A stretch of DNA of 64,000 bases, taken from Candidatus Hydrogenedentales bacterium. GTDB lineage: Bacteria > Hydrogenedentota > Hydrogenedentia > Hydrogenedentales > SLHB01. The position numbers and the translations under genes were made by a program. Positions 6,735 to 24,776 of this stretch are shown here, piece after piece; position 1 is the first letter of the stretch, and each line of letters starts with the position of its first letter. The notes beneath the pieces are model-generated. The model made no database searches, was not told where the DNA came from, and worked only from the letters and a program-made list of their open reading frames with translations. Location: positions 11,212-75,211 of the forward strand of contig JBHEKO010000113.1 of the NCBI GenBank assembly GCA_041859475.1. The letters are read 5' to 3'.

Positions 6735-8575
6735 TTCGCCGTTGTCTCCAAGATTTTCTCGAGACGCTTAATCATGGATTGTGCCTCACTAACATATGCG
6801 CTCTCCGGAAAGCGTTCCGTAAGTTCTTGCAGTAAATTGCGCGCTGCGGGATACTGTTGCTGGGCCAACCTGTTATTCGCTAGCCAATATAAAGCCCGAG
6901 GAGCCACATCGTCTATTTGGTTCGCAATATCCCGCATGTCCGCTTCCGCCTGCTCGGTATCTCCTAGGGCCGACTCGCAAAGCGCGCAGAGGAATTTAGC
7001 CCTAACTTTGAAAGTCGCGCTCTCACTCTGTCCGGTAAGGAAAGGCTGAAGTGTAACATAGGCTTTTTCGTAGCTCTCGTTCTTGTAGAGAAGAAGCGCC
7101 AACGCGAAACGCCCTTTCTGCGCTTCTGGCGTGTCAGAGTACTCGTCAAGCAGACGCTGATACCGCTCTTCAGCCTTGGTCGGGGTCTGTAAAACAGAAG
7201 CCTCGTACTCTGCAGCCGCCAAAAGCATCCGCGGGCGCGCGAAGGAACTAGGACACATTTCGATAAATTGATCGTAGACTTGGATGGCTTTCTTTGACTC
7301 AGCCTTGCTTTTCAAGGCCATGGCATAAGTCTCCGATAATTCCGCAAAATGCTCCGTGATCGCACTGTCGCTTCTCACCGCACTTTGCGCCAAAAAGTAG
7401 GTAGGGGCTGTCAACGCCAGTGCCAGTTCATCTCGGGCCAAGGTTTCCGCCGGGGGAAGTCCAAGTAACTCCGCTTGCGCATTCGGATTTGTGCCAGCAG
7501 CGCCTAAAATGCGTGCAACTCGCTTTAGAGCGACGTCGGCATACCGGATTTCTCTTGAGGTAGGCATACCCGCCGTTTCTTTGGGGAGAGAGGCTAAGCT
7601 GTTTGCCTGCGTTCCCAAAGCCCTCAACAAATCCAAAGTACGCTCACGCGGCGTTTGAGAGTCGCAAAGAGCAAGTAATCGGACTAAGAAACTAATGGTT
7701 TCGTTGGATGCAGAGAGCGTTTCCAGGGTTATCTTAGAAGAGATGGCATCCAAACTGGGTGCAAGAGCGAAGTAAACCGAAGCGTATGCGTTTGCCCCTT
7801 CTTTTGGGAATGTGTCAGCGGTGGCGCAACCTCGCGCCAGATACTCTCGCATGTCATTTGCTACAACGGCTAGAAGGTCTGGAGAGTCCTTATAGACGTC
7901 TACCATCTCTTTCTCCAGCGAGAAACCGGCGTTAGCGAGAATCCGAAGCGACAGAATGCACACACCGGGAACTCTAAGAAACTCTGGGTAGTCCGCACAC
8001 ATGCTGAGGATATCCAGCGCCGCCGCCTTAGGGTCTCCGTTTGATTCACAGTGCTCGGCTCTCCGAAGAAGGGCCAGACGTCTTGATTTACCTTTTGTCT
8101 GAGACGCGATAATTTCCTCGCAACGGCTGGTAAACGCGGAAGCGTCTTCGCGCGCTAACGCCGTCAGACTTCGATCTAAGGCTGCAAGCGCCGCCTTCGA
8201 GTCGAGAGCCCGGGCCTGCAACATCACGACAAGCCCCGCTGCACGGTTCGGCGATTCCTCTGCATACTTGGTGTAAAGAAGGTCGAAAAGACAAATTCCA
8301 GCATCGTCATTTGCGACAAGAAGCAGCAAGTCCTCAGGACCGGCCTCTTTTTCAAGAACACTGTCATGTTTCCCAGACTCGATGAGACGATCCAGAATGC
8401 GGTCTGGATCGGGCGACTTCGAGAGCGCCGCCCACTCTTCTTTGTTCTTTTCTAACCAAGCAGTACGGCGATCTGTTTCTGATAGCTTCGTCTCGGGCTC
8501 GTTTTCTCTGTTCGAGCACGCTGTGAGGAGCATTAGCAAACAGATCGCATGGCAAAGAAGATTCCTTGTGCTCAT
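6731..8575 (-). CDS. TPR-repeat lipoprotein
   Basis: Lipobox LLTAC follows a hydrophobic N-terminus. There are multiple TPR-like helical repeats (for example YKNESYEKAYVTLQPFL, ALYWLANNRLAQQQYPAARNLLQEL). The start is placed at the MSTRNLL methionine. Confidence 0.5.
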   Translation of the reverse strand: MSTRNLLCHAICLLMLLTACSNRENEPETKLSETDRRTAWLEKNKEEWAALSKSPDPDRILDRLIESGKHDSVLEKEAGPEDLLLLVANDDAGICLFDLLYTKYAEESPNRAAGLVVMLQARALDSKAALAALDRSLTALAREDASAFTSRCEEIIASQTKGKSRRLALLRRAEHCESNGDPKAAALDILSMCADYPEFLRVPGVCILSLRILANAGFSLEKEMVDVYKDSPDLLAVVANDMREYLARGCATADTFPKEGANAYASVYFALAPSLDAISSKITLETLSASNETISFLVRLLALCDSQTPRERTLDLLRALGTQANSLASLPKETAGMPTSREIRYADVALKRVARILGAAGTNPNAQAELLGLPPAETLARDELALALTAPTYFLAQSAVRSDSAITEHFAELSETYAMALKSKAESKKAIQVYDQFIEMCPSSFARPRMLLAAAEYEASVLQTPTKAEERYQRLLDEYSDTPEAQKGRFALALLLYKNESYEKAYVTLQPFLTGQSESATFKVRAKFLCALCESALGDTEQAEADMRDIANQIDDVAPRALYWLANNRLAQQQYPAARNLLQELTERFPESAYVSEAQSMIKRLEKILETTAK

Positions 8576-8597
8576 TTTTCGCTCCGGCGTCAGCAAA

Positions 8598-10004
8598 TTA
8601 GTTGTAGATATCCATGGTCCGGGTATTCGGTGCTTCTACTTTACGGATAAATTTGTTTGCCTCTTCCGTTGTTCTCTGATACACGCCATCAACCGAAATA
8701 TGTGATTGATATGGATCAACTATTCCAGCAAGGGCCAATATATAGTAACCATTAAAACGCTCAAACGCGAATTCCCGACCGATAAGGTCGAATGGCCCCG
8801 CATCGAACAGCTTTGACTGGGATGTGTAAACAAGGTCCCAATTGCCGCAATTTTGCGCGCACAAAGGGGCGAAGTCCTTGCGTTCAATAACATCCTTTCT
8901 GCATGGATATCCGATCGGAGCGTTCTGTAGCGGTGCATCTTTTCGGGTAAGCCATTTAACAAGCCGCCAAGACGCTTTTTCCTTTTCGGGAGTGCTTTTT
9001 CGCACCGCCAAATAGTATGTGGTTTTATTGGCAGCGACATCGCGTCCAGAACAAGGCAGCGGCGCCAAAGCAAAGCGCTTGTCTTGGCGTATCTCCGCCA
9101 GGCGTTTCCTCGTTACAATCTCCATTGCGTATTCCGAGGTGGGTTTGAGGGTTGGCCTTACTCGCGCAGTGCCGTCGCCTACCATGAAAAGAGGGGCAAA
9201 AGACGGTAGTTTAAGAAGCTCAGGCAATTGCTGCAGAGCTTCTCTAACCGCAGAGGAGTTAACGTCAATTCCGTTTTCCGTAAAAAGATTGGCGCCGCGC
9301 TGCGCTAGGAATGTGAGATATAGTTGGCGTATTATCTTGCCGCTTTCCACAATAGCAAGCCCAAATACATCGAGTTGGCCATCGCCGTCGGTATCTTTGG
9401 CCAAACGATTAGAATAGTCTATACACTCCTCCCAGGTCTTGGGAGGCGCACTCAATCCTGCCGCTGCGAACAAATCTGTCCGATAGGCAAGCAAAAGAAG
9501 ACTGTCCGCGACAAAAGGCACACCCCAAGTTTTCCCGCCATACTGGACAGGAGGCAACAAGTTCGGATAAAAGGCATCGAGATGGAAATCGTTGTCTGGC
9601 AGGAATTGGTCCACTGGGACAATCACCTGATTTGCTCCCAAGTGTGCCGCCTCATATCCCGACCAGCTACTCAAGCCGATCACGTTTGCCGCTAGGCCGG
9701 GAGTGTCGATCAGCAACTCTTTGGAGCGACTCGGTTGATTGAAGTTCTTTATCGTAACTCTAATATTTGGGTTCGCTGCCATAAAAGCTTGCACTTCTGA
9801 TGTGAACCACGGCAGCATTTCTTTCGAGGAAAGGGATAGATTGCCGACTTCGAGCTCAATGACCCCAGAGGGGGCCGCAGTGGCGAGAGAAGTGCTTTCC
9901 GTTTGTTGCGTCGGCGCGTCTTGTGCACGAGAAAACGTCGCAAACAGCAGCGAGGCAAGCACCAATCCAGCCCGAAGCATCGTTTCATACACTCTCCGTT
10001 TCAT
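8598..10004 (-). CDS. ABC transporter extracellular solute-binding protein, family 1 (sugar-binding, MalE-like)
   Basis: Signal peptide MKRRVYETMLRAGLVLASLLFATFS. The family-1 SBP core shows in GKTWGVPFVADSLLLLAYRTDLF and PPKTWEECIDYSNRLAKDTDGDGQLDVFGLAI. The start is placed at the internal Met. Confidence 0.6.
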   Translation of the reverse strand: MKRRVYETMLRAGLVLASLLFATFSRAQDAPTQQTESTSLATAAPSGVIELEVGNLSLSSKEMLPWFTSEVQAFMAANPNIRVTIKNFNQPSRSKELLIDTPGLAANVIGLSSWSGYEAAHLGANQVIVPVDQFLPDNDFHLDAFYPNLLPPVQYGGKTWGVPFVADSLLLLAYRTDLFAAAGLSAPPKTWEECIDYSNRLAKDTDGDGQLDVFGLAIVESGKIIRQLYLTFLAQRGANLFTENGIDVNSSAVREALQQLPELLKLPSFAPLFMVGDGTARVRPTLKPTSEYAMEIVTRKRLAEIRQDKRFALAPLPCSGRDVAANKTTYYLAVRKSTPEKEKASWRLVKWLTRKDAPLQNAPIGYPCRKDVIERKDFAPLCAQNCGNWDLVYTSQSKLFDAGPFDLIGREFAFERFNGYYILALAGIVDPYQSHISVDGVYQRTTEEANKFIRKVEAPNTRTMDIYN

Positions 10005-10383
10005 ACTATCTCCTTTTTCCGTTAACAAAATCTTGCAGAAATCCTCGAAACACTCCGCCGCGCTGACGCTCGTGCACACTGCCAAGAAGGCTGATAGAGG
10101 ACAAATTCAACGAATCACTCGGTTTTTTGTAGCACGCATACCTACGCTATTTCAAGATTTGACACCACTAACTTGCTTTTGCTATGCATACACGGGTTTC
10201 TAGCCTCTCATCAGGCGGGTGCCCGGCATTTTGGGCCTGCATGCTGGCGGCAGAAGGACGACGAGCGTTTTAAATATCTGACTTTGAGTGGGTACCCGGT
10301 TCGAGACGGTCGACGCGTTGTCGGAAAGTTTCTTGAATCTTCGTCCCGTGACAAGCACATAACCGAGTAAGGAGGAGCAGGCT

Positions 10384-11484
10384 ATGGCCCGAAGTTTTGA
10401 ACGTCCCGACGCACCGAAGAGGAGGATAGTGACGCGCCTTTTGTGGGGCCTTGCGTTCGCTGGCTTCGTGGGGCTGCCGCTGTATGCCGCGCTCGACCAG
10501 ATGGTCTACGCGGACGTCTATGGCCCTCCGCGCTGCTCTGCTACCGCGCCGACAACTGTGGGGAGCGCTTTTCAAGAGGTCAATGTAACGGGCCCTTCGT
10601 CCATGTGTGCGGGGGCCAAAAGCCTTTACACGGCAGGCGGTGGCGGCGACATGGACGTCGTCTCTGCGACGGACTGCGCCCCCGCCTGTTCGGGAGCGAC
10701 TCCACACTGCGTTAGAGGCCAATGCAACGACAATACTTCCTATTCGTGGAACGTGACTGGTGGAGGGGCATCGACTCACGAAGTGTCTGGGCTCAATAAC
10801 TATAAGTGTACGGTGAAGGCATCCAGAAACGCCCCTAGCTCTTTTTCCATTTTCGCGTCGAGGAATGAAGTGTCTGCATATGGCGAAGGAGGGACTCACT
10901 CTTCCACACCGTTAAGCGTGTCCGTGACTGGGCCAGCGCTCACACAATATACCGCCGCGTCATGGGCGTATCCCGATTACTCAAACAGAGTGAAGTCTCC
11001 AGCTGGGGCGCTTGCCGATGGAGAGGCCGCGACTTTCGACGTGTTTACCGATGATGCCGATGGCCCGGATGCCTCGGCTGATACTATATGTTGCAAAGGG
11101 ATTGAAATTAATATGGGAGAATTGGACGATATATTCTGTACTATCGGTTTAGATAAAATTGGCGATGAGACAGAGTATAATGCGGTACAAGCCAAGTCAT
11201 GGAATGTTAAGTACGTAGCGGAGATCAATTGGTGCGGGAGGCCGGTGCGAGAAGGGGAAGAGGTTTTTGTGGGTTGCGCTCCCATTGGCACCAATCTGAA
11301 CAAAATGATTTTGATTGCGTCCGCCTCCGCAGCTGTAGTGGCTCATGAGTTTGGCCATACTAAAGCGGGCCTTGAAACATCGGCTGGCGGTGACGTTGAC
11401 GGCCATAATACTAATCCTGAAAATTTCATGTATGCTACAGATCCAGGAGTCTATGTAAACAGCACGCAGTGCGGTAAGTTTTGA
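10384..11484 (+). CDS. Secreted/anchored metzincin-like zinc metalloprotease candidate (cassette A, gene 1)
   Basis: 366 aa. Strong RBS AAGGAGG. N-terminal hydrophobic anchor or signal. The middle is rich in Ser/Thr/Gly. The C-terminal motif is HEFGHTKAGLE followed by an ENFMY Met-turn-like motif. It is paralogous to 14680-15797. Confidence 0.55.
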   Translation: MARSFERPDAPKRRIVTRLLWGLAFAGFVGLPLYAALDQMVYADVYGPPRCSATAPTTVGSAFQEVNVTGPSSMCAGAKSLYTAGGGGDMDVVSATDCAPACSGATPHCVRGQCNDNTSYSWNVTGGGASTHEVSGLNNYKCTVKASRNAPSSFSIFASRNEVSAYGEGGTHSSTPLSVSVTGPALTQYTAASWAYPDYSNRVKSPAGALADGEAATFDVFTDDADGPDASADTICCKGIEINMGELDDIFCTIGLDKIGDETEYNAVQAKSWNVKYVAEINWCGRPVREGEEVFVGCAPIGTNLNKMILIASASAAVVAHEFGHTKAGLETSAGGDVDGHNTNPENFMYATDPGVYVNSTQCGKF

Positions 11485-11496
11485 TACCCCCTAACA

Positions 11497-12258
11497 ATGG
11501 TGAGGAGCGAAAACATGAAGCCAAGTAGCAAAATTTCACTCATTCTGACAATAATTGCATTGTTGCTCTGCTGGCAAGGGCGGGGCAGCGCGCTGTCGCC
11601 GGAAGACGAAAAGGCGATTCGCGCAGAAATGGCGGAGCCCCTACGCGGTGGACTTAGGGAAAAGGACTTTGCGGATCAATACGGAAAAGATGCAATTCCT
11701 GTCTTGCTCGACATCCTCAAGTCCGGCGATGGAGAACGCTATTACTTAGGAGACGTGTGCCATATCTTGGGGGTGCTTGGCGCCCAAGAGGCATTGGACC
11801 CGATGAAGGAACTCGTGGATCGCGCATTGAGCAAGAAAGACCTCACCAGACGCGAATTTGTTCGGGTAGGACTCGCATTGCGGGGAATTGGTCATCTTGG
11901 CAGTGACGATGCGATAAGCTATCTAAATCAGTTCATTACGGGCTCCTACTGGGCAACGCGGGACGTTCACCCAACCGTTTCCGAGTCAAAACACACAAAG
12001 GCTATGAATCAAGATAAGGTTCAAGAAGAGTTGCGAACGTATAGCATAATCGCTCTTGGAATGGCGGGCAATCAAAAGGCGATCGACATGCTTACAGAAC
12101 TCCAAAAACAAGATGTTTCGCCCTCGCCGCACACACTCATAATAAAGGGGGCGATTGCAGACGCGGAGAAAGTGCGCGCTGGCGTGTATTGGAGCGAGAT
12201 GAGGGAAATGCAAAAGACGCTCAGCCCCACCCCTGCTCCCATCAGCGGCAAACCCTAG
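11497..12258 (+). CDS. HEAT/PBS-lyase-like repeat protein with signal peptide (cassette A, gene 2)
   Basis: 253 aa. Signal-like N-terminus KISLILTIIALLLCWQG. HEAT-like repeats at AIPVLLDILKSGDGERYYLGDVCHILGVLG and AIDMLTELQ. Confidence 0.45.
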   Translation: MVRSENMKPSSKISLILTIIALLLCWQGRGSALSPEDEKAIRAEMAEPLRGGLREKDFADQYGKDAIPVLLDILKSGDGERYYLGDVCHILGVLGAQEALDPMKELVDRALSKKDLTRREFVRVGLALRGIGHLGSDDAISYLNQFITGSYWATRDVHPTVSESKHTKAMNQDKVQEELRTYSIIALGMAGNQKAIDMLTELQKQDVSPSPHTLIIKGAIADAEKVRAGVYWSEMREMQKTLSPTPAPISGKP

Positions 12259-12463
12259 CAGTTGCGGGGCAATGTCTATTTTGCTGGGTAGATTGTGACA
12301 AGCTGTTCGCAGGATTTCTAGAAGGTTCCAGGGGCGCAGGTGTTGGGTTGCGTTCGTCCGCGGAAATGCCAAGCGTATCCCAGAGTCCATCGGATTTCCC
12401 CCGTTGCGGTTACTGGAGTCTATGCGGACACATCGGGACTATTGATCTGGAAGGCATTATTAC

Positions 12464-13516
12464 ATGCGTAGGAAAAGACTGAGGGCCTCTCTGTTTATTT
12501 TGTTGGGCATGACGGTGGTGTTCGACGCGCAGGCCGAAAACTACATGGACCGAATGATCACGAATCTTCGGCCTGGGTATGAGAAATTACCGGAGGCCAT
12601 TCAGCCCATTTATTCGGTGGCGTTGCGTGCTCGCAAAGAGCAGAAGTCCGATACCGCGCTGGAAGCGTTCACGAACATTGCCGAGATTGTGCAGCGCGAC
12701 GCTGCCTCGATAGACCCCAACATCGCGACGTATTTCTTGGCCCAATTGGCGCTTTCGCAAGAGGTCTCGAACAAGTATCCGTTGGCGATGAAGACACTTG
12801 AGCAGATACGGCAGTTGAGGAGTGAGCCGGAGGCCGAGGAAATCCGCTATCTGGCCGATCTCGAGCGGATGCGTTTGATGAACCAGAGCGGCGGGCACCC
12901 CGATATCCCGGAATTTGATCCGAGTATCGAGGAAAAGGAGAAACAGGCCAAGTTTCTATTCGAGACGTACAGTCCGTACCGCCAGGAGATTCTTAAGGCG
13001 CACGTTGAGTTTGCGCAAGACGCCTGCCAGGCCGCGCTGTCGGATCGCACGAAGTTCCGCTACCTACAGATCGCCATCGAGCAGTTGAAAGAAGTGCGCG
13101 ACATCGCCATGCGGATACAGCAGAATCCCGCGCTTGCGCAAGACGAGCGAACGGTGCGTGGGCTCGATTACTTTCTGCAATACACCGAACTAAACATTCC
13201 GCAGTGGGAGAAACTCCACGAGTCGATTAGCCCCGAAACGGTGGTTCTTTCGGACTTGGCGGGACCGCAAGCGGCTCCGGTGGGCCAAACGACGACAGCC
13301 GAGATTATCGAGTCGACGCAACGGGAAAGCGCCGCCGCGCCAACGCAGACGGTGCCGGGGACGGCAGCAGCTCCGCAGCCTAAAGCTGAGCCGACGAGCA
13401 CGGGAATGCGTTTCCCGGTCCTTTGGGTGATTTGGGCGGTGTTGGGGGCGGGGCTTTTGTTTGCCGTGGCCTATCGCCTGGGTAAGGCGTCGCGGCCTTC
13501 TTCCAGTGGAGAATAA
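12464..13516 (+). CDS. Signal-peptide protein with C-terminal transmembrane anchor (cassette A, gene 3)
   Basis: 350 aa. N-terminal signal MRRKRLRASLFILLGMTVVFDAQA. Helical middle. C-terminal TM FPVLWVIWAVLGAGLLFAVAY. It is clearly paralogous to 16736-17815 (shared AENY.D..I..LRP..., LAQLALSQE, GGHP.IP.F.PSIEEKEKQ). Confidence 0.5.
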   Translation: MRRKRLRASLFILLGMTVVFDAQAENYMDRMITNLRPGYEKLPEAIQPIYSVALRARKEQKSDTALEAFTNIAEIVQRDAASIDPNIATYFLAQLALSQEVSNKYPLAMKTLEQIRQLRSEPEAEEIRYLADLERMRLMNQSGGHPDIPEFDPSIEEKEKQAKFLFETYSPYRQEILKAHVEFAQDACQAALSDRTKFRYLQIAIEQLKEVRDIAMRIQQNPALAQDERTVRGLDYFLQYTELNIPQWEKLHESISPETVVLSDLAGPQAAPVGQTTTAEIIESTQRESAAAPTQTVPGTAAAPQPKAEPTSTGMRFPVLWVIWAVLGAGLLFAVAYRLGKASRPSSSGE

Positions 13517-13521
13517 TTCTT

Positions 13522-14589
13522 ATGACCAAGAGTATGCCGTTCTTGCGAGCGAGAGTATATACGTGTCTGTGTGTGCTGTTGCTTTCTTCGATAGGCCCCG
13601 TTTTCGCGCAACAGCCGGAGCAGAGCGCTGCCCGCCTGAAGCTGACAGAGCTGACCAAAGTTGTCGAGTTGCGCAGCGGCCTCGATTCCGTGCCTAAAGA
13701 AGTTGTAGCCCTCTACCAAAACACAGGGACCGCTCCGCTCACTGTGTCGGTCAAGAGCGTTTCCTGCGGTTGTACAAAGGCGGTCATCGAGACACCCTTG
13801 CTTGAGCCAGGTCAGGAAGGACGGATCAAGCTTGAGCTTGAGGAGAAGAAGTTCAAGAAAGACGGCACCGTCATGATACAACTCGCAACCAACGACCCAG
13901 AGCAAAAAGAGGCTTATCTCCAACTTGAGGTCAAGTGGATTCCGCCAGTCTCCGTCACCGGTGCCGGCCTGCTGCAATTGGGCCTTGTGCCGACCGGAGA
14001 ACAGCGGAAGGCGGCGGTCGCGCTGGTTCAGAATTTCGGAGACGTTCCCTTAAGTGTTGATATCAAGTCGTTAACGGGAAACTGCCTTGCCGTTGGCGTG
14101 AGCGAGGGAACCAAAGGCTCGCTAAAGACGTTTTCGTGTGAAATCACCTTCGCGGCTGTGAATCCGCCGGGGCCGTTCCGGGAGGAAGCGATTCTACAGA
14201 CGAACTTGACGGAGCCTCGGGATATCGTGGTCCCCGTTTCCGGAATAGTCGTGGGCGATATCGAAGTGGACCCGTGGCAGATCGATTTCGGCAGAGTGCC
14301 GCTCGGAACGACAAGAGACCGCCGTTTGAGATTACTTTCTTCCGCAGAGAAAGAAGCGAGGTTTGTGTCGGCCTACACCAATGTCCCGGCTCTTCGGCTA
14401 TCGTGGGACAAAAACGGAAAACCGACGAGTATTACGGCTACCTTCAGCGCCACCCAGGCGCAAGGGGACATCAAGGGAATGATTCACCTAGTTTCGAGCT
14501 CCGGTCAAGAAACGTATGTGCCCGTGACGGGAACCGTTGTTCCGGCGATTATCGATCTCGCTTCTTCAGGTTCTGCAGCTCCTCGGTAG
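13522..14589 (+). CDS. DUF1573-like secreted protein
   Basis: 355 aa. Signal peptide. The motif LTVSVKSVSCGCTKAV matches the N.G...L......SCxC signature seen in the two other DUF1573-like ORFs here (30885-29815, 50982-49987). Confidence 0.5.
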   Translation: MTKSMPFLRARVYTCLCVLLLSSIGPVFAQQPEQSAARLKLTELTKVVELRSGLDSVPKEVVALYQNTGTAPLTVSVKSVSCGCTKAVIETPLLEPGQEGRIKLELEEKKFKKDGTVMIQLATNDPEQKEAYLQLEVKWIPPVSVTGAGLLQLGLVPTGEQRKAAVALVQNFGDVPLSVDIKSLTGNCLAVGVSEGTKGSLKTFSCEITFAAVNPPGPFREEAILQTNLTEPRDIVVPVSGIVVGDIEVDPWQIDFGRVPLGTTRDRRLRLLSSAEKEARFVSAYTNVPALRLSWDKNGKPTSITATFSATQAQGDIKGMIHLVSSSGQETYVPVTGTVVPAIIDLASSGSAAPR

Positions 14590-14679
14590 ACATCCTGAAG
14601 CCCTACGATGAAGGGAGCAGGGAAAATGTGAAGCTCAGAGTTGGGTGTTGTACGTATCACGAACTTAGAACGATAGTAC

Positions 14680-15797
14680 TTGGGTAACCTCGATAAAGGA
14701 GAAATGCCAATGCAGGTAATGCGACTTTGCCGATGCAGCGGTGTATTGATTGCTTTTGTGGCAGCCGTGCTGGCGGCAGCGCAGAATAAAGTTGCGCATG
14801 CCGACATTCTGAGCGACCCCGGCTGTACCTCCACGCAGCTCCCCAACGTAGGCTCGAAATTCGATTATGTAGTGTGCAGCGGCCCCAGTTCGGTCGCGCC
14901 GGAAGCACCGCGGAGTTTTTCGCTTATCGAGGTGGCGATGACGACAAGATCGCTTCCTCTGGAGCAAACTGCCCGCCGCAGTGCACGAGTTTTCGAATTG
15001 CCTCCAATGGTGACCATGACTTCACCTGGGCGGTAGACCGCGCGGCAGCCTACGAAACATACGACGGGAGCGCCGGACTGAACGAAAAGTGCCGTATTAC
15101 GGCGTCCTACAACAGTTTTGAAAGTATCCAGATAACGGTTTCACGCACAGAGGTGAGCGCTTACTGCGACATGCCAGGAGGAACGTCCACGTATCCCATG
15201 ACGGTGAATGTCACCGAACCAGAGTGGTCCACGGTGACGGTGAGTGCCCATTCTTCAGTAAATCTTTCTACCTCGACCGTAAATGCTGATATGCGAAGCG
15301 GAACTCAAGATATTTTGCTGAGGGACGCTGATGGTCTTTCAAATACCGACGACGAGAGTTGTTGCCAAGGTCTTCAGCTCGCTGGCGAACTTACCACCTT
15401 CGAGGATATCGATGTGGACGGGGTGGGCCAACTTTCTTACCTTGATATAAACAGTGTTACAAAGGATACAAACATCAAGGCGGACTGGTCGAATAGCTCA
15501 AAAAAGAAGCAATGTGTTGTAGTGAAAACATGGACCTATAATTATGAGACGGGACTACTCGATTGGAATAACAGATCCTTCGTTGTAAACCATTCGCAAG
15601 GATATATCGTTGCTGATGACTTAACGCCTTATGTATGGATCCACGAGTGGGGGCATCTTAAAGGACTCAACGATAGGTACTACGACATTCCGCCCTTATA
15701 CCCTGCCTGGGCTACATACGGGGAGAACTTTATGGGGCCGCGGAATAAGACCCACGTACGTCTTGAGGAACAGTGCCTCATTTTGGGGTTACCATAG
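14680..15797 (+). CDS. Metzincin-like HExxH protein paralogue (cassette B, gene 1). It has an apparent frameshift near 14886-14897; possibly a pseudogene or an assembly error.
   Basis: The signal peptide MRLCRCSGVLIAFVAAVLAAAQ and GPSS lie in one frame (ORF 14680-15036). The remainder (RAGSTAEFFAYRGGDDD... HEWGHLKGLND ...ENFMG) lies in ORF 14874-15797. Alignment with 10384-11484 (P.C..T...VGS.F....GPSS / AG...YTAGGGGD) spans the junction. Confidence 0.5.
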
Positions 15798-15868
15798 TGA
15801 CTCACTTGGCGATGCGAAAGAATATTTTCAAATTGGAGAAGGTGTAAACCCAAAATACATAAGGAGGA

Positions 15869-16672
15869 GTGGCAGTGAACTTAACCAAATCATTATCGCA
15901 GTTTCGTCAGCCAAGGCTGGTATTCGTGGTATTTGTGTCCATCGCAGGAATGCTGACAACGCAGAACGCCTCTTGCGAATCAACGACGGCAGTCGGTCAG
16001 CCCGAGCAGTCGGCATCTTCTGATCCGGGCCGCGAACCTCTCAAAGAAACGGATATTGCCGAAATCAATCGCCGTTTTTTGGCTTGGGGATTTGACTCGG
16101 AAGGCGCGAGACTTACTGCGGACGAATACGCGAATAGGGCCATTGTCCCTTACCTGATTCAAGTGATTGACGAGCGGAGGAAAAGTGATTTATCCCCGAC
16201 GGAGCGTTGTCTTCGGCAATCGGCAATGGCGACGTTAGCCTATACAAAAGACGCGCGAGGAAAGGCTCTGTTTCGGAAGATTCTTAATGAACCTTTGAAG
16301 GAAGAGATGAGTTACTCCGATTGGTTTCTTATTCACGGCGCTTTACTTGGTCTTGGCGTGGGGGCCGATGATGCGACGCTCGATCTACTTTTCGAGGCAG
16401 CTACCGAGGAATATTGGATCAAGCGCAATCCCAAAGCATGTAGGAAAGGCGGAACGCCCAAAGACTTTCGCGACCATATGCGTATTGCAGCTCTTGACGG
16501 AGTCGCCAAATCCGGCAGTGAACGGGCTATAAAGGCCTTTACCTCATGGGAGGGCCTTCCGGAAGACAAACGCATGGATCAACCGTGGCTATTGAAGGGC
16601 GCAACTCGCATAAACAAAGAACTCACGAGAATTCCCGGAACACAGGGCAATACTGAAGAGGAATTGGAGTAG
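15869..16672 (+). CDS. HEAT-like repeat protein with signal peptide (cassette B, gene 2)
   Basis: 267 aa. GTG start with RBS AAGGAGGA. N-terminal hydrophobic segment. AIVPYLIQVIDERRKSD is related to AIPVLLDILKSGDGE in 11497-12258. Confidence 0.45.
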   Translation: MAVNLTKSLSQFRQPRLVFVVFVSIAGMLTTQNASCESTTAVGQPEQSASSDPGREPLKETDIAEINRRFLAWGFDSEGARLTADEYANRAIVPYLIQVIDERRKSDLSPTERCLRQSAMATLAYTKDARGKALFRKILNEPLKEEMSYSDWFLIHGALLGLGVGADDATLDLLFEAATEEYWIKRNPKACRKGGTPKDFRDHMRIAALDGVAKSGSERAIKAFTSWEGLPEDKRMDQPWLLKGATRINKELTRIPGTQGNTEEELE

Positions 16673-16735
16673 CGCTGCCGCCACGGTATGCAGAGAAAGA
16701 AGCATTGATGTGCCAACTATGGATTGCGCTGAAAT

Positions 16736-17815
16736 TTGCGGCTTTGGGGATTGACAATGCATTGTAAGAAGCGTCGTGCTTTGGTGTTCTGGGCGTTTTT
16801 CTATTTGGTAAACTCCGTATGCATGGCGGAGAACTATGCTGATACGCTTATAAGTTACCTTCGGCCTAAAGTGGCGGAATTTTCCGACGAGGGGAAGACA
16901 CTCCTGCAAATTGGCATGAATGCGAATAGAAAGGGAGAACCGCAGGCCGCGATAGAGGCGTTTTCGAGCATGCTTTCTGATGACTCGTTGGGATTGAGCC
17001 CGGACCAGCGCTCGTTGGCGCTGGCGCAATTGGCGCTTTCCCAAGAGGCGGCGAATCAGCATCCGGACGCCATGAAAACGCTTCAATCGTTGCGTGATTC
17101 GCGGCCCGAGCAGGAGGCGCAGGAAATCCGGTTCTTGGCCGACTGTGAGATGGCCCGGTTGATGGCGCAGTGCGGAGGGCATCCGAACATTCCCGGATTT
17201 ACGCCTTCGATTGAGGAAAAGGAGAAGCAGTACAATTTGCTTTTTTCCTCTTACACCCCGTATCGCATCGAAATTCTTGCCGCGCATTCGGATTTTGCCA
17301 AAGAGGCGTATGATGAGGTAATGCGCGGCGGCCCGCTGTATGCCGCCTATAAGAAAGTGGCTGTGCAACAACTTAAGGAAGTGCAGGCTATCGCGGAGGC
17401 GCTGACCGCGAATCCAGCGCTGGCCGCAGACAAAAGGATACTTTCGTCGCTGGGCTTCTATAAGGAATGGGCAGATCGCAAGATTCCGCGATGGGAACGT
17501 ACTTTTTCTACGCTTGCGCACGAATTACAGGTGAAGGAAGATATCGAGAGTATGCTTAGTTCCTCTTTGGAAGAAGAATCCACAAATACACCGCAAACGG
17601 CTTCATCGACCGGCGGAGATGTTCGGGAGTCCGTGGTAAGCATGGGGGCAACTGGGTCGGACGGCACATCCGTTGCGACACCCAATAGCCAACCCAAGCC
17701 TCGGGGTGAACTCTTGGCGACGCTTTCCGCTGCGGGCGCAGTGCTGATTCTTACTGCGACTGTCTGGGCGCGCAAGAGGAGAAAGGTTTTCGCCGCAGGT
17801 CAAAAGGAGAAATGA
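16736..17815 (+). CDS. Signal-peptide protein with C-terminal TM anchor (cassette B, gene 3), paralogue of 12464-13516
   Basis: 359 aa. AENYADTLISYLRP, LALAQLALSQEAANQHPDAMKTL, GGHPNIPGFTPSIEEKEKQ. C-terminal TM AVLILTATVWA followed by RKRRK. Confidence 0.5.
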   Translation: MRLWGLTMHCKKRRALVFWAFFYLVNSVCMAENYADTLISYLRPKVAEFSDEGKTLLQIGMNANRKGEPQAAIEAFSSMLSDDSLGLSPDQRSLALAQLALSQEAANQHPDAMKTLQSLRDSRPEQEAQEIRFLADCEMARLMAQCGGHPNIPGFTPSIEEKEKQYNLLFSSYTPYRIEILAAHSDFAKEAYDEVMRGGPLYAAYKKVAVQQLKEVQAIAEALTANPALAADKRILSSLGFYKEWADRKIPRWERTFSTLAHELQVKEDIESMLSSSLEEESTNTPQTASSTGGDVRESVVSMGATGSDGTSVATPNSQPKPRGELLATLSAAGAVLILTATVWARKRRKVFAAGQKEK

Positions 17816-17935: not shown

Positions 17936-19042
17936 CTATGTGAGGTCTGAGCGATCATAAAGTGCGAAAAGTTTCCGGTTCCATATTCTTGAGGAAAACT
18001 CTGTCTCGACTAGACGTCGTGCGTCGCTGGCCAAGCGCTCGCGGAGGGAATCATTTTGGGCGATGAGCAAGAGAGAATTGGCCAAGGTCTGCGGATCGCC
18101 TTCAGGGACGAGCAAGCCGGTCTTGTTGTGCAGAATAACGTCCGTTATTGCGCCCGCATCAGTACCCACGACGGCTAGTTTGTGAGACATCGCCTCGAGA
18201 ATAACATTGGGGACACCATCACGGTCACCATCGAGCGCGGTCACCGATGGCGCTACGAGCACATGTGATGTCCGGTAGCGAGCCGCGACAGCGCCGGGAG
18301 ACTGCCACCCTATCAACGCGACGTGCTCTTCCAACCGGAGGGTCGTAATCTGTGTTTCGAGCGCCTTGCGTTCTGGACCATCGCCGACTATGGCACAATG
18401 GAATGAGATCCTGCGTGCGCGAAGCAGCGCACAGGCGTCGATAAGAACCTTAAAACCTTTCTTGGGCACCAGACGCCCCACTGCGAGAATCTGATAAACA
18501 TCCCCCACCGAGTCGATGGTTGGAGAGACTTCTTCGGGCAAGTCAACACCATGTCGTATGAGTTCAAGTCGTGCTTCCGGATATCGCAGGGCCAAGTGGC
18601 GCTGTGCTGCGCTGTTGCAGACTGCGCAGAAAGTAGCGTGTTGCAGGACAACTCTTGGCGTGTCCTCTACGAAGACGTCGCGGGCATGGGCCGCCAAACT
18701 ATAAGGTTTATCGAGTATCTGCGCGAGGGCATAGGCCACTATGGCCGGCATGCCGAGAAAAGCCGCGTGGATATGGGTGGTGAGACCTGTATGGAGTCTG
18801 AGCGCCAGCGCCTGTGCAATGGCCCGTAGCGCGCGGATAGGATCATTGCGCAGGTTCTGGACTAATCGTAGAGTCGTTGTATTCGTAAAGGCTTTTGGCA
18901 AGCACTGGAGGAACGGTACGGAATCAAGCCCCACGACATCTATATGCATTCTGAGCTCTCGCAAACCGGCAATCTCTCTCGCGACAAAGGTTTCAGAGGG
19001 GACAGGATAACGGGCTACAATATAAAGAACTCGGCTAGCCAT
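17936..19042 (-). CDS. Glycosyltransferase family 1 (GT4-type)
   Basis: 368 aa. The C-terminal GT1 motif is DGVPNVILEAMSHKLAVVGTDAGAITDVILHNKTGLLVPEGDP. Confidence 0.65.
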   Translation of the reverse strand: MASRVLYIVARYPVPSETFVAREIAGLRELRMHIDVVGLDSVPFLQCLPKAFTNTTTLRLVQNLRNDPIRALRAIAQALALRLHTGLTTHIHAAFLGMPAIVAYALAQILDKPYSLAAHARDVFVEDTPRVVLQHATFCAVCNSAAQRHLALRYPEARLELIRHGVDLPEEVSPTIDSVGDVYQILAVGRLVPKKGFKVLIDACALLRARRISFHCAIVGDGPERKALETQITTLRLEEHVALIGWQSPGAVAARYRTSHVLVAPSVTALDGDRDGVPNVILEAMSHKLAVVGTDAGAITDVILHNKTGLLVPEGDPQTLANSLLLIAQNDSLRERLASDARRLVETEFSSRIWNRKLFALYDRSDLT

Positions 19043-20027
19043 GGATTCGGCTCTTCAATGTCTGCACGGCCTCGCGCGCCGCCAACAAACATCGTTCTCC
19101 TGTTGATCGATAGGCAGAGAACTCAACGTAGTCTTTTAGTACGCCACGGAACTTTTTCTTGAAACGAGTAATCGCCGGTATATTCGCTCCGCCAAGATCA
19201 AAATGCAACATCGTGCATGGCATCTCTTGCACGGCGCGCCACACCAGCAACGACGGCGCGCCTGTTTTCTTCAGTTGTTCATCAGACCCAGCGAGCGAAT
19301 AGTAGACTGAACGTTTATCCCACACAAAGAGGGCGCACGCGCAGGGGCTCCCGTCTGGCAACTTTGACACGTAGTAGCTTCCGATGCCGGATACGACGAG
19401 ATCGTCCAGAAGCTGGATGAGCGACGCCGTGTTGAAAGGTAATTCGCGTCCTTGACGCGAAAAGGTGTCTCTATACAGGGCATCAAATGCCTCGGCAGAT
19501 GTGTTTTTTTCGATCTGAATGCCTGCTTTTTCGGCTTTGCGGACCTTGTTGCGAGCCCCTGAGGCGATGCTGGACCAGAAGGCTGCAGAGTCCGTGATGT
19601 TATGGACGTAGGTGTGCCGTTTGCGAGTTGACCAATGGACCGGGAAAAGGGCCTCCGAAGCATTGGGGGGAAAGGCCAGCGTCGTAAGCGAGTGTTGTGC
19701 GCGTGTGGCATCGGCAAGTTTGGCGGCAAGGACTGCTTGCGAGTTTTCAAAGTTCTTTGCTACGACGATGCTGGCGTATGGGGTAGCAAAGGCGCGCCTG
19801 GCGATGGAGAACGGCCCTTTGCTTCGGATGGCGAGCGGCACGCCCGCGACCAGTTCGGTGTCCTGAAACGCGCCGTATACCAACCATGAATCTCTCGTCG
19901 CTCGACAGACCGCCGAAAGCCAGCGTGTATCGTGGTAGATCGTGCCTTCCGCCGAATCCGCTACCAAAGCGTTCCAGAATGGGAAATCCTCTGAGATTAA
20001 CGGGCGCACTTCCATTTGCTCAACCAT
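19035..20027 (-). CDS. FemAB-like (GNAT-fold) acyl/aminoacyltransferase, EPS-associated
   Basis: 330 aa. FemAB/BioF2-like family pattern (YHDTRWLSAV ... YYSLAGSDEQLKKTGAPSLLVWRAVQE ... FDLGG). The gene just upstream is a tandem paralogue. Confidence 0.5.
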   Translation of the reverse strand: MVEQMEVRPLISEDFPFWNALVADSAEGTIYHDTRWLSAVCRATRDSWLVYGAFQDTELVAGVPLAIRSKGPFSIARRAFATPYASIVVAKNFENSQAVLAAKLADATRAQHSLTTLAFPPNASEALFPVHWSTRKRHTYVHNITDSAAFWSSIASGARNKVRKAEKAGIQIEKNTSAEAFDALYRDTFSRQGRELPFNTASLIQLLDDLVVSGIGSYYVSKLPDGSPCACALFVWDKRSVYYSLAGSDEQLKKTGAPSLLVWRAVQEMPCTMLHFDLGGANIPAITRFKKKFRGVLKDYVEFSAYRSTGERCLLAAREAVQTLKSRIHG

Positions 20028-21030
20028 GTCTGCGATTACCCACGATCAAAGCCTTAAGCAACTCGCTTGCGGTTCGAGCGCGTTCGAGCGTTTCTATGAG
20101 CATGCGAGATACGGGTGACCGGTAAGCATGGCAATCAAGCACGGGATAGCTTTCGGGCGTGAACGTGCGTTTGAACTGCGCGATGCCTTCTGTCCCATAC
20201 CCCACGAGGTCGACTTCGTTGTAACGACCGTTCAGTTTTTCAAACGTCGTCCACCAAAGAAGAGACATCGCATTAGTCTTGCGCAATCGTGAATCATTAC
20301 CCGCCAACATGAAATAGGCCCGCTTCGAGTCATAGCCCACGACAAGAGCCGCCGCCGGTTCCTGCGATGCGGTTTTGGCCAGAAACACTTCGGCTAGGCC
20401 AGCCTCACACGCGTGTTGTATGGTGCTTTTCACAGAGTTCTCGCTTAGCGGCATCGGCGTACCCTGGCGCGTATAGGTCGATACGTACAGTGGATAGAAC
20501 GTCGAAGCGTCCGCCTTATCGACGACAATCCCGGCATCGCGTGCGCCCCGAATGTGTTGTCTGGCATGACGGTTCATCCGTTTCCACAACGCATCCAAGT
20601 CCGCGATCTGAACGACCGGCGTACGCTGCAACGTTGTAGACCATCCCTGCAACGGAACATCGGAAAAGCCATGAACGAGACGAACAAAGGGGTAACGTCG
20701 CAGCAATGCCGAAGACAATGCTTCTTGCGCCGACTCAGGCGCACCTGGGGCGAGAATGACGCCATTATACGCCGTAGCCCAGGGTTTGACCGCTCTCACG
20801 ATACCTAGCCGCGCTGTCCTTCGGACGATGGCCCCGGCAACGATATCTTCTCCGCGTTGCACGATATGCACCCGGATATCATGGCCCATGCCGTGTCTTA
20901 GCGCCTCTAGCCAGCCGCTCAAATGATAGACTGTCCCCAACGGCGCCCGCTCCACAAACCTATCCCACACATCTCGGGCATCGGCCCCTGAAAGCGAGCT
21001 CTCGGTCACGCTATAGTTGTCGGCGATCAT
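20020..21030 (-). CDS. FemAB-like acyl/aminoacyltransferase paralogue
   Basis: The start is placed at MIADNYSV (ATG 21030-21028), by alignment with the N-terminus of 19035-20027. VYHLSGWLEAL, YFMLAGNDSRLRKTNAMSLLWWTTFE, VDLVGYG. Confidence 0.5.
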   Translation of the reverse strand: MIADNYSVTESSLSGADARDVWDRFVERAPLGTVYHLSGWLEALRHGMGHDIRVHIVQRGEDIVAGAIVRRTARLGIVRAVKPWATAYNGVILAPGAPESAQEALSSALLRRYPFVRLVHGFSDVPLQGWSTTLQRTPVVQIADLDALWKRMNRHARQHIRGARDAGIVVDKADASTFYPLYVSTYTRQGTPMPLSENSVKSTIQHACEAGLAEVFLAKTASQEPAAALVVGYDSKRAYFMLAGNDSRLRKTNAMSLLWWTTFEKLNGRYNEVDLVGYGTEGIAQFKRTFTPESYPVLDCHAYRSPVSRMLIETLERARTASELLKALIVGNRRHG

Positions 21031-21073
21031 GTCGCGCCCTCTACGCAGAGATGCGTCCTCCCCATGTCTTCTA

Positions 21074-22006
21074 CTACTGCTCCGACGACGGGGACACGAG
21101 AAGTCCGAGCGCTGCCATAACGTCTTTGTCGAACGTCGCAAAATAGTGCGAGGCGAGATTTTCTGTGGTTGACTTGGACGTGCCGGCCCACAATGCACGA
21201 GCGCGTTGTGCCGCACTTGCGCCCAGAATATCGAGGTCGATAAGAAGCGCTGCTGCACAGCCTTTGCCTGTGAGTTCTTTTGTCGCTATGACGGGCGTCT
21301 GTTTGGAGATGGCGTATTTGCAGATGGCGTTGCCGAAACGTCCGGAGTTGGGGTCGTCTGGAACGAACAGAACGTCCAAGGAATGTTCTAGTTGCGCTTT
21401 GTCAATAGCCTTTTCGTAGTCGGAGTCGGTTCTGCATGCGCCTGCAGGAACTTTGACTGGGACAACGGATGCATCCGCCGTTGGCTTGTTTGCTCCAAGC
21501 GCGCTTAGCAGTTGCTGATTGGCGATGTTCCCGTCGGTGAAAAGGACGCCGAGGCTCTTTGTACCGGGTTTGAGCTTTAGTGCGGTTTGCCAGACTAGCG
21601 CCGTATCAGGCTCCGTGGACATAGCGCCGGGAAGTGCTTGAGCAGCGGCGTCGCGCGCAAAAAAGGCAACGAGGGGCAGTGAAGACGCTCGGGCGTGGAC
21701 AGCGGCATAAACTGCGTCGCCAAAGGTAAGAACGAGGTCTGGTGGACTGGTCTTCAATCCGTTAATGGCGCTTTTCAAGTCTGTGTCGCTACCCATTGCG
21801 TTCAGACGCTCGATTGCGCCTTGCTCGCCGTATTCTTTGAGTGTAGCGCTGAAAGCGGCGAGGACTTGTTCGTGCGACCGTGATGGTATCCATTCGATGG
21901 CAACTACGCGTTTGGACACCGTTTCCGCCTCTGCGAAAAAAAACCAGAGTAACAGCATTACGGCAAAGCATACACTAATGTTTGAAATCAGCCTGAATGT
22001 TGTCAA
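21074..22006 (-). CDS. ABC-transporter-type periplasmic substrate-binding-like protein (ABC_sub_bind-like)
   Basis: 310 aa. N-terminal TM/signal. Type-I periplasmic binding fold hints (VVAIEWIPSRSHEQVLAAF, LVLTFGDAVYAAV, VLFVPDDPNS). The domain call is tentative. Confidence 0.4.
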   Translation of the reverse strand: MTTFRLISNISVCFAVMLLLWFFFAEAETVSKRVVAIEWIPSRSHEQVLAAFSATLKEYGEQGAIERLNAMGSDTDLKSAINGLKTSPPDLVLTFGDAVYAAVHARASSLPLVAFFARDAAAQALPGAMSTEPDTALVWQTALKLKPGTKSLGVLFTDGNIANQQLLSALGANKPTADASVVPVKVPAGACRTDSDYEKAIDKAQLEHSLDVLFVPDDPNSGRFGNAICKYAISKQTPVIATKELTGKGCAAALLIDLDILGASAAQRARALWAGTSKSTTENLASHYFATFDKDVMAALGLLVSPSSEQ

Positions 22007-24150: not shown

Positions 24151-24170
24151 TACGCTTCGTTCTCCTCTCC

Positions 24171-24776
24171 TTAGAGCATCGTTCGCATTGCGCCGCCAGT
24201 AATGGACGCGAGGATAATCGCGACACCGAGTAACCAGTTAGTACGTGGTGGAGCCTCGAACGAATGTCGACAGACAAACCCGGAGGTCAATACGAGCGCC
24301 AGATTTCTCGAAGCTTGATGGAACGTCCCCGGGTCGAGGTGGTCTCTGCCGCCGAGAAATCGGTAACCGCCCAATAGCAGTAATGCCAGGGCGAGAAGTG
24401 CGATAGTGCTGATTTTTAGGAGGCGCGTCGACGCGGGATTCCCTGGGCCTTGTGCGGACCAGGACGCCAGTGCGATAGCTCCCATCAAGAGAAGCGCCGG
24501 CCGCGCAACGGGAATCACGTCTCCGTTTAAAACGACCGGAATTTGAACTGTGAGATATGAGGCTGGAATGCTCCAATACGACAATACAAGCGTCCATATC
24601 ATAGGCCGCCACTCACGAAGCGAATGACATCTCGTCGCTAGAACCAATAGACCCAATCCCATTCCTGTCGTTGCGTCGAATAAGGCGCCATTTCTGATCG
24701 CGAAAATTGCCAATAGCCCTATTGCTGCGACGAAAATAAAGACCGTTGAGGAAATAACGCGACCTCTCAAGTCCAC
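24171..24776 (-). CDS. Polytopic membrane protein, possibly the detached N-terminal part of the Wzy-like gene downstream
   Basis: 201 aa with about 6 predicted TM helices. It ends 20 nt before the Wzy_C ORF in a different frame. Confidence 0.35.
   Translation of the reverse strand: MDLRGRVISSTVFIFVAAIGLLAIFAIRNGALFDATTGMGLGLLVLATRCHSLREWRPMIWTLVLSYWSIPASYLTVQIPVVLNGDVIPVARPALLLMGAIALASWSAQGPGNPASTRLLKISTIALLALALLLLGGYRFLGGRDHLDPGTFHQASRNLALVLTSGFVCRHSFEAPPRTNWLLGVAIILASITGGAMRTML

Follow-up and report, generated by a model that had tools for sequence, protein, structure and literature searches.

Exported metzincin-like proteins paired with HEAT-repeat partners in a duplicated cassette of a Candidatus Hydrogenedentales bacterium

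Introduction

Metzincins are among the best-studied protease clans. They include the small bacterial snapalysin (M7), whose third zinc ligand is Asp, and serralysin, which together with Inh/AprI forms a pair of a metzincin and its inhibitor. Both Inh and the potempins are beta(-barrel-type) proteins; Lif, the chaperone of a secreted lipase, is an all-alpha-helical scaffold. To our knowledge, the known proteinaceous partners of bacterial metzincins (Inh/AprI, potempins, CpaB) have folds that are quite different from HEAT repeats, and AlphaRep-type HEAT proteins already serve as engineered binders. Here, we analyze a stretch of 64,000 nucleotides (nt) from a Candidatus Hydrogenedentales bacterium, referred to as the window, in which eight open reading frames (ORFs) on the plus strand (10384-17815) make up two copies, A and B, of a three-gene cassette and a gene for a DUF1573 protein. 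Gene 1 (g1) is predicted to encode an exported metzincin, gene 2 (g2) an exported HEAT-repeat protein and gene 3 (g3) a helical protein with a C-terminal membrane anchor. The catalytic domain of g1 and its HEAT partner seem to evolve as a single unit.

Several related systems have been described. CpaB is encoded next to CpaA, a metzincin secreted via a type II secretion system (T2SS); it acts in the periplasm, is needed for the secretion of CpaA and its tail is inserted in the active site (PMC4713064, PMC7542363). It is an SRPBCC-domain protein (PMC4713064). Lif is a client-specific steric chaperone that is encoded in one operon with its lipase and acts in the periplasm, before export by the T2SS (PMC4713064, PMC13381987). 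Potempins, cognate inhibitors of secreted metzincins, are outer-membrane lipoproteins of 98-132 residues, with genes located upstream of those for the KLIKK metzincin peptidases of Tannerella forsythia (PMC9890683). Finally, among the polymorphic toxin systems, Imm-HEAT proteins have been described with Ntox34 and Tox-REase-7 and not with peptidases, while the Tox-MPTases are Wss1-like zincins and not metzincins (PMC3482391).

Gene 1, a Predicted Exported Metzincin

The g1A protein consists of a predicted N-terminal signal peptide, a Cys-rich domain and a C-terminal catalytic domain (Table 1), and most of its 13 Cys occupy conserved positions. The fold neighbours of the Cys-rich domain are bacterial Ig-like domains (FdeC, Lig, invasin, filamin), and it is the only domain that was found with Foldseek. 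A possible Tat signal in g1A (KRRIVT) is not conserved among relatives and was rejected.

Neither g1A nor g1B has a significant match in Pfam or NCBIfam, nor a Reprolysin match at E<=1. A word-indexed search of 5.8 billion proteins with g1A returned only g1A itself, and 17 proteins were found when 1.84 billion cluster representatives were searched exhaustively by HMMER with a profile of the two paralogues. In an alignment of 19 g1 sequences, with 20-32% overall identity, H321, E322, H325 and M349 are invariant, and so are V278 and, within the motif D-x-H-C-C-K-G, D233 and C237. The invariance of the two His, the Glu and the Met at such a degree of divergence points to purifying selection on catalysis. 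M349 is located in N-x-M (ENFM), and in a profile search of the PDB it aligns to the Met-turn of matrix metalloproteinases (MMP). Most members have HExxHxxGxxD or HExxHxxGxxH, for example HEYGHTRGLGH and HEYGHFCGLKD in relatives, and the HEWGHLKGLND of g1B is canonical as well. Furthermore, the catalytic domain has conserved motifs of its own, namely D-x-H-C-C-K-G and a C-terminal Q-C.

More distant relationships all lead to metzincins. When a profile of the C-terminal 190 residues was compared with PDB sequences, metzincins came out on top (E from 0.002 upward), aligned over HExxHxxGxxH...M; the top matches are MMP-2, -13, -8 and -9, a fragilysin-like protease, snake-venom metalloproteinases, ADAMTS-5 and karilysin. 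In Pfam, members of the family have matches below threshold to Reprolysin_5/4/3, Matrixin, M66, M6 and M54. The best values among relatives are 22.3 bits for Reprolysin_4 in P0014, the only relative that grazes the cutoff (22), and E=1.3e-4 for Reprolysin_5, which is below the cutoff. An AlphaFold2 (AF2) model of g1A based on the 19-sequence alignment has a predicted local distance difference test (pLDDT) value of 76.9; a model from the two window paralogues alone (pLDDT 34) was discarded. In the retained model the catalytic domain has a metzincin fold (twisted beta-sheet, active-site helix and C-terminal helix) with adamalysins and pappalysins as neighbours: Atrolysin C (10.9), Ulilysin (10.7), ADAM22, ADAMTS-5, ADAM8, ADAMTS-1 and ADAMTS-13 (about 10), CpaA (9.8), Mirolysin (9.3), and Archaemetzincin and fragilysin (8.5).

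On the basis of the predicted fold, the invariant HExxH and Met-turn and the sub-threshold Reprolysin/Matrixin matches, the catalytic domain is considered to be of a true metzincin type. Judging from its sequence, g1 is an exported, disulfide-rich Ig-like plus metzincin protein of a new family, distinct from M12B, M10, M43 and M7. In the initial annotation, made from the letters of the window, the HEFGHTKAGLE/HEWGHLKGLND and ENFM motifs had been read as a minimal metzincin-like zinc site behind a probably beta-rich part. The motifs are indeed present, structure prediction is in agreement with such a site, and the beta-rich part corresponds to the Ig-like domain. A likeness to snapalysin, also put forward, is not borne out: Peptidase_M7 is absent from the Pfam tables, and the neighbours by fold belong to the adamalysins and pappalysins.

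The HEAT-Repeat Partner and Its Co-Divergence with the Protease

In both cassettes, g2 has the same orientation as g1 and starts shortly after it, at a distance of 13 nt from g1A and 72 nt from g1B. The g2A protein exceeds the Pfam cutoffs for HEAT_2 (32.2 bits, cutoff 27.7) and HEAT_PBS (25.3, cutoff 20.9), and it is similar to the C-terminal HEAT domain of P0023, in which a catalytic and a HEAT domain are fused (25% identity, E=2e-12). On its own, g2B does not match any Pfam family; it is related to the partner in L011, one of the other loci of the family (29% over 268 aa, E=2e-24), and to both partners in L008 (E ~1e-17), and it aligns over its full length in the g2 family alignment. The direct similarity between g2A and g2B is weak (23%, E=6e-4), and intermediates connect them into one HEAT family. 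A profile of this family, built from nine homologues and two fused domains, matches alphaRep/HEAT structures in the PDB (E=6e-39). The N-termini, in the window as well as in HEAT partners elsewhere, resemble signal peptides with A-x-A-type sites, in accordance with the secreted HEAT protein that had initially been annotated.

The association of the two genes extends well beyond the window. Nine g1 copies in six organisms (window A and B, L003, two in L008, L010, L011 and two in L014) are all followed by a g2-type HEAT gene; L009 and L013 were left out of this count because their contigs end too soon. The same order is found in every related locus of this Ig-domain subfamily in which a HEAT gene was identified. 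In L015, a short contig, g1 (P0012) is followed by a 283-aa protein of no assigned family instead of a HEAT gene, and then by a g3-like protein. Among further loci from soil and sediment metagenomes, all ten that could be tested have the HEAT part behind the catalytic domain, either as a separate gene (eight, often with a 4-nt spacing or overlap) or within one fused protein (two). Natural fusions of this kind are P0021, P0023, L106 and L113.

Not only the order but also the divergence of the two partners is linked. The similarity matrices of catalytic and HEAT domains correlate with r=0.95 over 16 pairs, and with r=0.88 within the Ig subfamily (Mantel p about 4e-4), the HEAT partner diverging faster than the catalytic domain. 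Window type B groups with L011 and the second L008 pair (L008b) for both g1 and g2. For type A, the HEAT partner is closest to that of L003, and the catalytic domain groups weakly with L010/L003, its nominal top match being L108. From this grouping, the two cassettes of the window seem to be ancient types that have been inherited as units. In the tandem g1 pairs of three genomes, the identities of N-terminal half and catalytic domain are 35% and 28% (window), 100% and 40% (L008), and 81% and 52% (L014), while the g2 pairs in tandem paralogues are 22-38% identical. In L008, 610 nt of DNA that cover the 5' untranslated region, the signal peptide and the Ig-like domain are 100% identical between 9924-10533 and 12229-12838, which indicates a recent gene conversion that was confined to the 5' half. 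As far as sequence comparison can tell, the pair of catalytic domain and HEAT protein is the universal core of the system, genetically inseparable and co-diverging.

Cassette Duplication and Gene Decay

The two cassettes are paralogous at a level far beyond chance, as judged from the comparisons of g1A with g1B (34% identity over 190 aa, E=5e-19) and of g3A with g3B (37% over 333 aa, E=2e-68). Copies A and B can be aligned at the DNA level in only one 286-nt stretch of g3 (67%), and the duplication must therefore be old. No further fragments of the module families were detected in the window when all family members were compared with it (tblastn). A promoter and terminator scan gave no excess over shuffles, a PADLOC defence-system scan nothing beyond a weak HEAT match, and an Rfam scan was negative.

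The tandem cassettes and their old, diverged duplication, which the initial annotation had recognized, are thus recovered, with protein identities of 23-37% and all ORFs in place except that of g1B. The latter, at 14680-15797, had been taken as a single gene and both copies as maintained; these 1118 nt contain two ORFs in different frames, and the copy-B protease gene is disrupted by a frameshift. Its likely start is the ATG at 14704, behind GGAG, followed by an intact signal peptide. One frame encodes the first 70 residues, among them the signal peptide with homology to g1A residues 38-83, and everything after them is read in the -1 frame. The homology to g1A moves from frame 1, at GPSS, to frame -1, at AGS, which indicates a 1-nt deletion within ~14893-14897. 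The Shine-Dalgarno sequence, the ATG and the downstream frame are otherwise intact, and an independent Logan assembly of a sequencing run (L018) has exactly the same g1B sequence. Programmed -1 frameshifting was rejected, as the switch site (GTCGC) is without a slippery heptamer. We regard g1B, on this reading of its frames, as a recent pseudogene, or at least as disrupted in the dominant population, so that copy B would at present be without a functional protease gene.

Signs of decay are also seen in other loci. The g1 of L003, the closest relative, contains an in-frame TAG at 6053-6055, seen in five assemblies (L003-L007). Selenocysteine and pyrrolysine were rejected here: a TAG codon in place of a non-conserved Ser/Thr is most simply explained by a pseudogene. 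Upstream, at 5166-5420 of L003 and identically in L004-L007, lies an N-terminal g1 remnant of 84 aa, with 53% identity to the N-terminus of P0007. On the 1.6-Mb contig L014, the module has been invaded at 12088-17743 by three transposase genes (DDE_Tnp_1, IS66), one of them splitting g3, and one g1 copy has an M-to-L change in the Met-turn, which reads N-F-L.

Table 1. Coordinates of the cassette genes, their predicted domains and motifs, and other features of the window
Feature	Position	Strand	Description
g1A	10384-11484	+	366 aa; predicted exported two-domain metzincin
g1A signal peptide	residues ~1-43	+	predicted; A-x-A, then D
g1A Cys-rich Ig-like domain	residues 45-182, nt 10516-10929	+	
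g1A catalytic domain	residues 183-366, nt 10930-11481	+	
g1A C-C-K-G	11089-11100	+	
g1A HEFGH	11344-11358	+	motif HEFGHTKAGLE
g1A ENFM	11419-11430	+	Met-turn
g2A	11497-12258	+	253 aa; predicted exported HEAT-repeat partner of g1A
g3A	12464-13516	+	350 aa; signal peptide, helical body, C-terminal transmembrane segment
DUF1573 gene	13522-14589	+	355 aa; terminal gene of the module
DUF1573 S-C-G-C motif	13762-13773	+	
g1B	14680-15797	+	frameshifted g1A paralogue; ORFs 14680-15036 (118 aa) and 14874-15797 (307 aa)
g1B HEWGHLKGLND	15642-15674	+	HEWGH 15642-15656
g1B ENFM	15723-15734	+	
g2B	15869-16672	+	267 aa; predicted exported HEAT-type partner, type B
g3B	16736-17815	+	359 aa; g3A paralogue; gene callers start at 16757 (352 aa), the likely start
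TPR protein	6731-8596	-	Pfam; divergent from g1A
SBP_bac_1 solute-binding protein	8598-10085	-	Pfam; orphan, without adjacent permease genes
EPS-type locus	17936-29818	-	directly downstream of the cassettes
DUF1573 paralogue	29815-30885	-	
T2SS cluster	31290-42076	-	
DUF1573 paralogue	49987-50982	-	
Large ORFs beside the T2SS	42283-47967 and 50982-52130	-	366, 441, 384, 673 and 382 aa; no Pfam match at E<=1e-4
RT-Cas1 fusion gene	1478-2980	-	Pfam: RVT_1 3e-29, Cas_Cas1 1e-25
37-nt direct repeats	327-585 and 3035-3147		flanks of the RT-Cas1 gene

Gene 3, DUF1573 and the Composition of Related Modules

The g3A protein has a signal peptide, a helical TPR-like body, a low-complexity linker rich in Pro, Thr and Ala, a C-terminal transmembrane (TM) segment (residues 314-340) and a short basic tail; in g3B the TM segment is at residues 325-345. 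This is the helical, exported and C-terminally anchored protein that had been annotated from the outset. The conserved segment of the family reads P-S-I-E-E-K-E...L-F-x-T-Y-S-P-Y-R...A-H. No relative of g3 was found in Pfam, NCBIfam or the PDB, where a profile search gave only marginal matches to designed TPR proteins, and alignment scans of genomes and metagenomes yielded nothing. The closest homologue (49% identity) is encoded on the metagenome contigs L003-L007.

The protein encoded behind g3A belongs to DUF1573 (PF07610, 61.2 bits against a cutoff of 26.1), with about three Ig-like domains and a predicted signal peptide; in NCBIfam it matches the OS_HP2 (seleno)protein (3.6e-10). Selenoprotein members of DUF1573 have U-G-C where the window protein has C-G-C (PMC9312934), and this correspondence points to a redox role. 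Two further DUF1573 paralogues occur in the window (Table 1), the three together having S-C-G-C or S-C-P-C, which suggests a thiol-redox role for the uncharacterised DUF1573. The literature consulted mentions this family without a functional study.

The g1 relatives with a named source are from metagenome-assembled genomes (MAGs) of Hydrogenedentota. In L003-L007 the order is g1 remnant, g1, g2, g3 and DUF1573, followed by the glycosyltransferase and FemAB-like genes that are also found in the window. L008, a Hydrogenedentota MAG, has g1-g2-g1-g2-TPR-SBP-(g3-like)-...-DUF1573; its helical, C-terminally anchored protein was rejected as a g3, being at best a marginal homologue (hhalign E=0.004, probability 8%). 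L011, from a second Hydrogenedentota MAG, has g1-g2-g3 up to the contig end, and L010 is a short contig with g1-g2. L014 has g1-g2-g1-g2, three insertion sequence (IS) elements, the split g3 and DUF1573.

A second g1 subfamily, found by profile search and metagenome scan, combines the same catalytic domain (HEYGHTRGLGH...AVM) with a signal peptide and FG-GAP-like repeats, and its HEAT genes carry their own signal peptide. In the loci of this subfamily no g3 homologue is present and the neighbours are unrelated housekeeping genes; no search for DUF1573 was aimed at them. A DUF1573 orthologue follows g3 in L003 (44.5% identity) and L014 (30%, E=7e-45). Judging from these gene orders, g3 and DUF1573 are additions in the Ig-domain subfamily, and DUF1573 is a member of the module rather than an extra of the first copy, as had initially been assumed. 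The idea of a conserved g1-g2-g3 triad is therefore to be refined: the triad recurs, and the families do co-occur outside this genome (L003, L008, L010, L011, L014), but the universal unit is catalytic domain plus HEAT, with g3 in one subfamily.

Upstream of g1A, the window contains genes for a TPR protein and a solute-binding protein (Table 1). Genes for a TPR protein and for a homologue of the SBP_bac_1 protein (29% identity, E=9e-55) are part of the L008 module, and in L014 a TPR/SLT protein is encoded upstream. On these similarities, both neighbours may belong to the same system.

Further Features of the Window

Downstream of the cassettes lies a locus of the exopolysaccharide (EPS) type, with four GT1/GT4 glycosyltransferases, two FemAB/Acetyltransf_6-like proteins, a Wzy_C-like protein and a MurJ-like flippase. 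Its first three genes are syntenic with L003-L007, where a B12-radical SAM gene comes next. The T2SS cluster encodes a secretin, a PilN-like protein, GspK, GspJ, GspF and GspE, and at the downstream end there is a DUF1573 gene. GspE is only 43-57% identical to its best matches among the species representatives of GTDB (Omnitrophota, Elusimicrobia, PVC). Large ORFs without Pfam assignment are located beside this cluster (Table 1).

Near the start of the window, a fusion gene of reverse transcriptase (RT) and Cas1 is flanked by 37-nt direct repeats that are spaced by 73-76 nt, in four copies at one flank and two at the opposite one. These repeats look like CRISPR arrays of an RT-associated system. 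The G+C content is 0.59-0.65 at positions 1-4000 and 58000-64000, compared with 0.50-0.56 in the interior.

Proposed Role and Alternative Readings

By analogy with CpaA/CpaB or KLIKK/potempin, g1 might be a Sec-exported metzincin that is held by a cognate HEAT chaperone or inhibitor, a proposal to which we give about even chances. The g1 protein would be exported by its Sec-type signal peptide and would fold in the periplasm into a disulfide-rich Ig-like domain and a compact, adamalysin/pappalysin-like catalytic domain. The g2 protein would bind the catalytic domain of its own g1 in a one-to-one manner, as a cognate chaperone and/or as an inhibitor that keeps g1 latent until it is exported or released. 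The complex might be tethered or organized at the cytoplasmic membrane by g3, with its periplasmic helical domain and C-terminal TM anchor, and g3 may in this way provide the membrane tether that is built into Lif and CpaB. The DUF1573 protein could aid oxidative folding or disulfide formation in the Cys-rich protease. As the export route of g1 we infer a candidate in the T2SS, which is encoded 13 kb away. A surface protein-maturation module, as initially suggested, is possible, but a cognate chaperone or inhibitor fits the data better.

Some observations do not sit easily with this proposal. The motif of g1A is a variant, in which Ala replaces the Gly and Glu takes the place of the third zinc ligand, and its loop of residues 333-340 has low confidence in the AF2 model. 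The fold of the partner is unlike that in all precedents, none of which is a HEAT solenoid, and g2 looks soluble with a cleavable signal peptide, while Lif and CpaB are N-terminally membrane-anchored. The adjacency of a T2SS is not conserved, none being present within 10 kb in L008, L014 and the loci of the FG-GAP subfamily. For g3 and DUF1573, the proposed roles are drawn only from their architecture and a single motif. Finally, the frequent decay (the frameshift in g1B, the TAG in the g1 of L003, the IS in the g3 of L014) calls into question how much the module is needed.

More speculatively, it could be imagined that the exported HEAT proteins form a new class of specific metzincin binders (inhibitors, immunity proteins or steric chaperones) that co-evolve one-to-one with polymorphic, secreted mini-metzincins. 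Constant Ig-like or FG-GAP N-domains would then serve for delivery, and units of catalytic domain plus HEAT would be swapped by recombination. Such an undescribed protease-based conflict or secretion system is a possibility that we consider rather less probable than the proposal of a cognate chaperone or inhibitor.

Two alternatives assign another task to the HEAT protein, and both seem unlikely to us, to a similar extent. According to the first, the pair is a polymorphic effector-immunity system, in which g1 would be a metallopeptidase toxin, secreted against bacteria or eukaryotes and made up of a constant N-terminal delivery domain and a variable C-terminal toxin domain, and g2 a periplasmic HEAT immunity protein against this envelope-acting toxin. 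A constant or homogenised 5' half in front of a diverging catalytic domain, as in the tandem paralogues of three genomes and most clearly in the identical 610 nt of L008, would be expected from such a system, as would an adjacent partner that evolves faster and co-diverges, and the presence of arrays, remnants and pseudogenes. Moreover, polymorphic toxin systems are documented to include Imm-HEAT proteins as well as zincin toxin domains (Tox-MPTase1-5), and some of them have plain signal peptides (PMC3482391). However, the natural fusions of enzyme and HEAT domain (P0021, P0023, L106, L113) would not be anticipated if one part were a toxin and the other its immunity protein. Pfam detects no RHS, filamentous-haemagglutinin, LXG, PT-TG or other trafficking or pre-toxin domains in g1, the Pfam tables contain no Tox-MPTase, and the PADLOC result is limited to the weak HEAT match. 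Orphan cassettes of C-terminal toxin and immunity gene are not seen, the sole remnant (L003 5166-5420) being N-terminal, and there are at most two pairs per genome.

The second of these alternatives holds that g2 is an adaptor that recruits a substrate or acts as a scaffold and that, with g3 and DUF1573, it is part of an envelope machine for processing an exported or surface protein, maybe linked to EPS or T2SS. HEAT solenoids are generic protein-binding scaffolds, fusions to the catalytic domain suit an exosite domain as well as an inhibitor, and g3 has a TM anchor. The window module adjoins the EPS-type locus and the T2SS, and the same GT1 and FemAB-like genes follow in L003-L007. Elsewhere, however, the core pair is found in unrelated neighbourhoods without g3, EPS or T2SS (for DUF1573, no search was aimed at these loci), and no conserved candidate substrate gene is located alongside. 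The faster divergence of the HEAT protein, together with strict pairwise co-divergence, would rather be expected of a protein that binds the enzyme directly, as in the proposal of a cognate chaperone or inhibitor.

That g1 is a non-catalytic adhesin or pseudo-protease with a relic HExxH, as the Ala and Glu at the canonical Gly and third-ligand positions of g1A, the N-F-L of one L014 copy and the several pseudogenes might suggest, is very improbable in view of the H, E, H and Met that are invariant in 19 sequences at 20-32% identity and the canonical HExxHxxGxxD/H in g1B and most relatives.

Comparison with Known Systems

The metzincin fold and the general logic of a secreted protease with a dedicated adjacent partner are already known. 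The g1 metzincin family, its obligatory HEAT partner and the g3/DUF1573 extension appear to be undescribed; a full-text literature search on metzincins together with HEAT repeats gave only unrelated work. The metzincin clan is thereby extended with a new and very sparsely sampled family, as no Pfam or NCBIfam model covers g1. If the proposed role is correct, a metzincin-specific HEAT solenoid would be a new way to keep a secreted protease latent or folded. Furthermore, the module gives a first functional context for C-G-C DUF1573 proteins and for the C-terminally anchored helical family.

Among the peptidases themselves, the HExxHxxGxxD of g1B is reminiscent of snapalysin. With M12B (adamalysin/reprolysin) and M43B (pappalysin/ulilysin), g1 shares only 7-15% identity, and its catalytic domain is shorter (~185 aa). 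A pattern reminiscent of polymorphic toxins (Zhang et al. 2012), with a constant N-terminus, a variable C-terminal enzyme and a fast-evolving cognate binder that is encoded downstream, is seen in three genomes; however, there are only two variants per genome, and natural fusions of enzyme and HEAT domain exist. In comparison with KLIKK/potempin and serralysin/Inh, the partner is here a HEAT protein of ~250 aa, which is encoded downstream and sometimes fused.

The resemblance to CpaA/CpaB of Acinetobacter lies in a multi-domain, adamalysin-like metzincin, secreted in the case of CpaA and predicted to be so for g1, with the partner gene immediately downstream, and in the T2SS that is present in the window. 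However, CpaB is an SRPBCC protein with an N-terminal TM anchor, while g2 is predicted to be a soluble HEAT solenoid. Four glycan-binding domains of CpaA surround the chaperone, as compared with one Ig-like domain in g1, and there is no sequence relationship. LipA-Lif/LipH differs in having a lipase as client and in the N-terminal anchor of Lif; the g2 profile matches only HEAT/alphaRep-type proteins and has no homology to Lif. With respect to the class of Lif and CpaB as a whole (Harding et al. 2016), g2 shares the adjacency and co-orientation but is without the N-terminal TM anchor, and the membrane-anchored protein of this system is g3.

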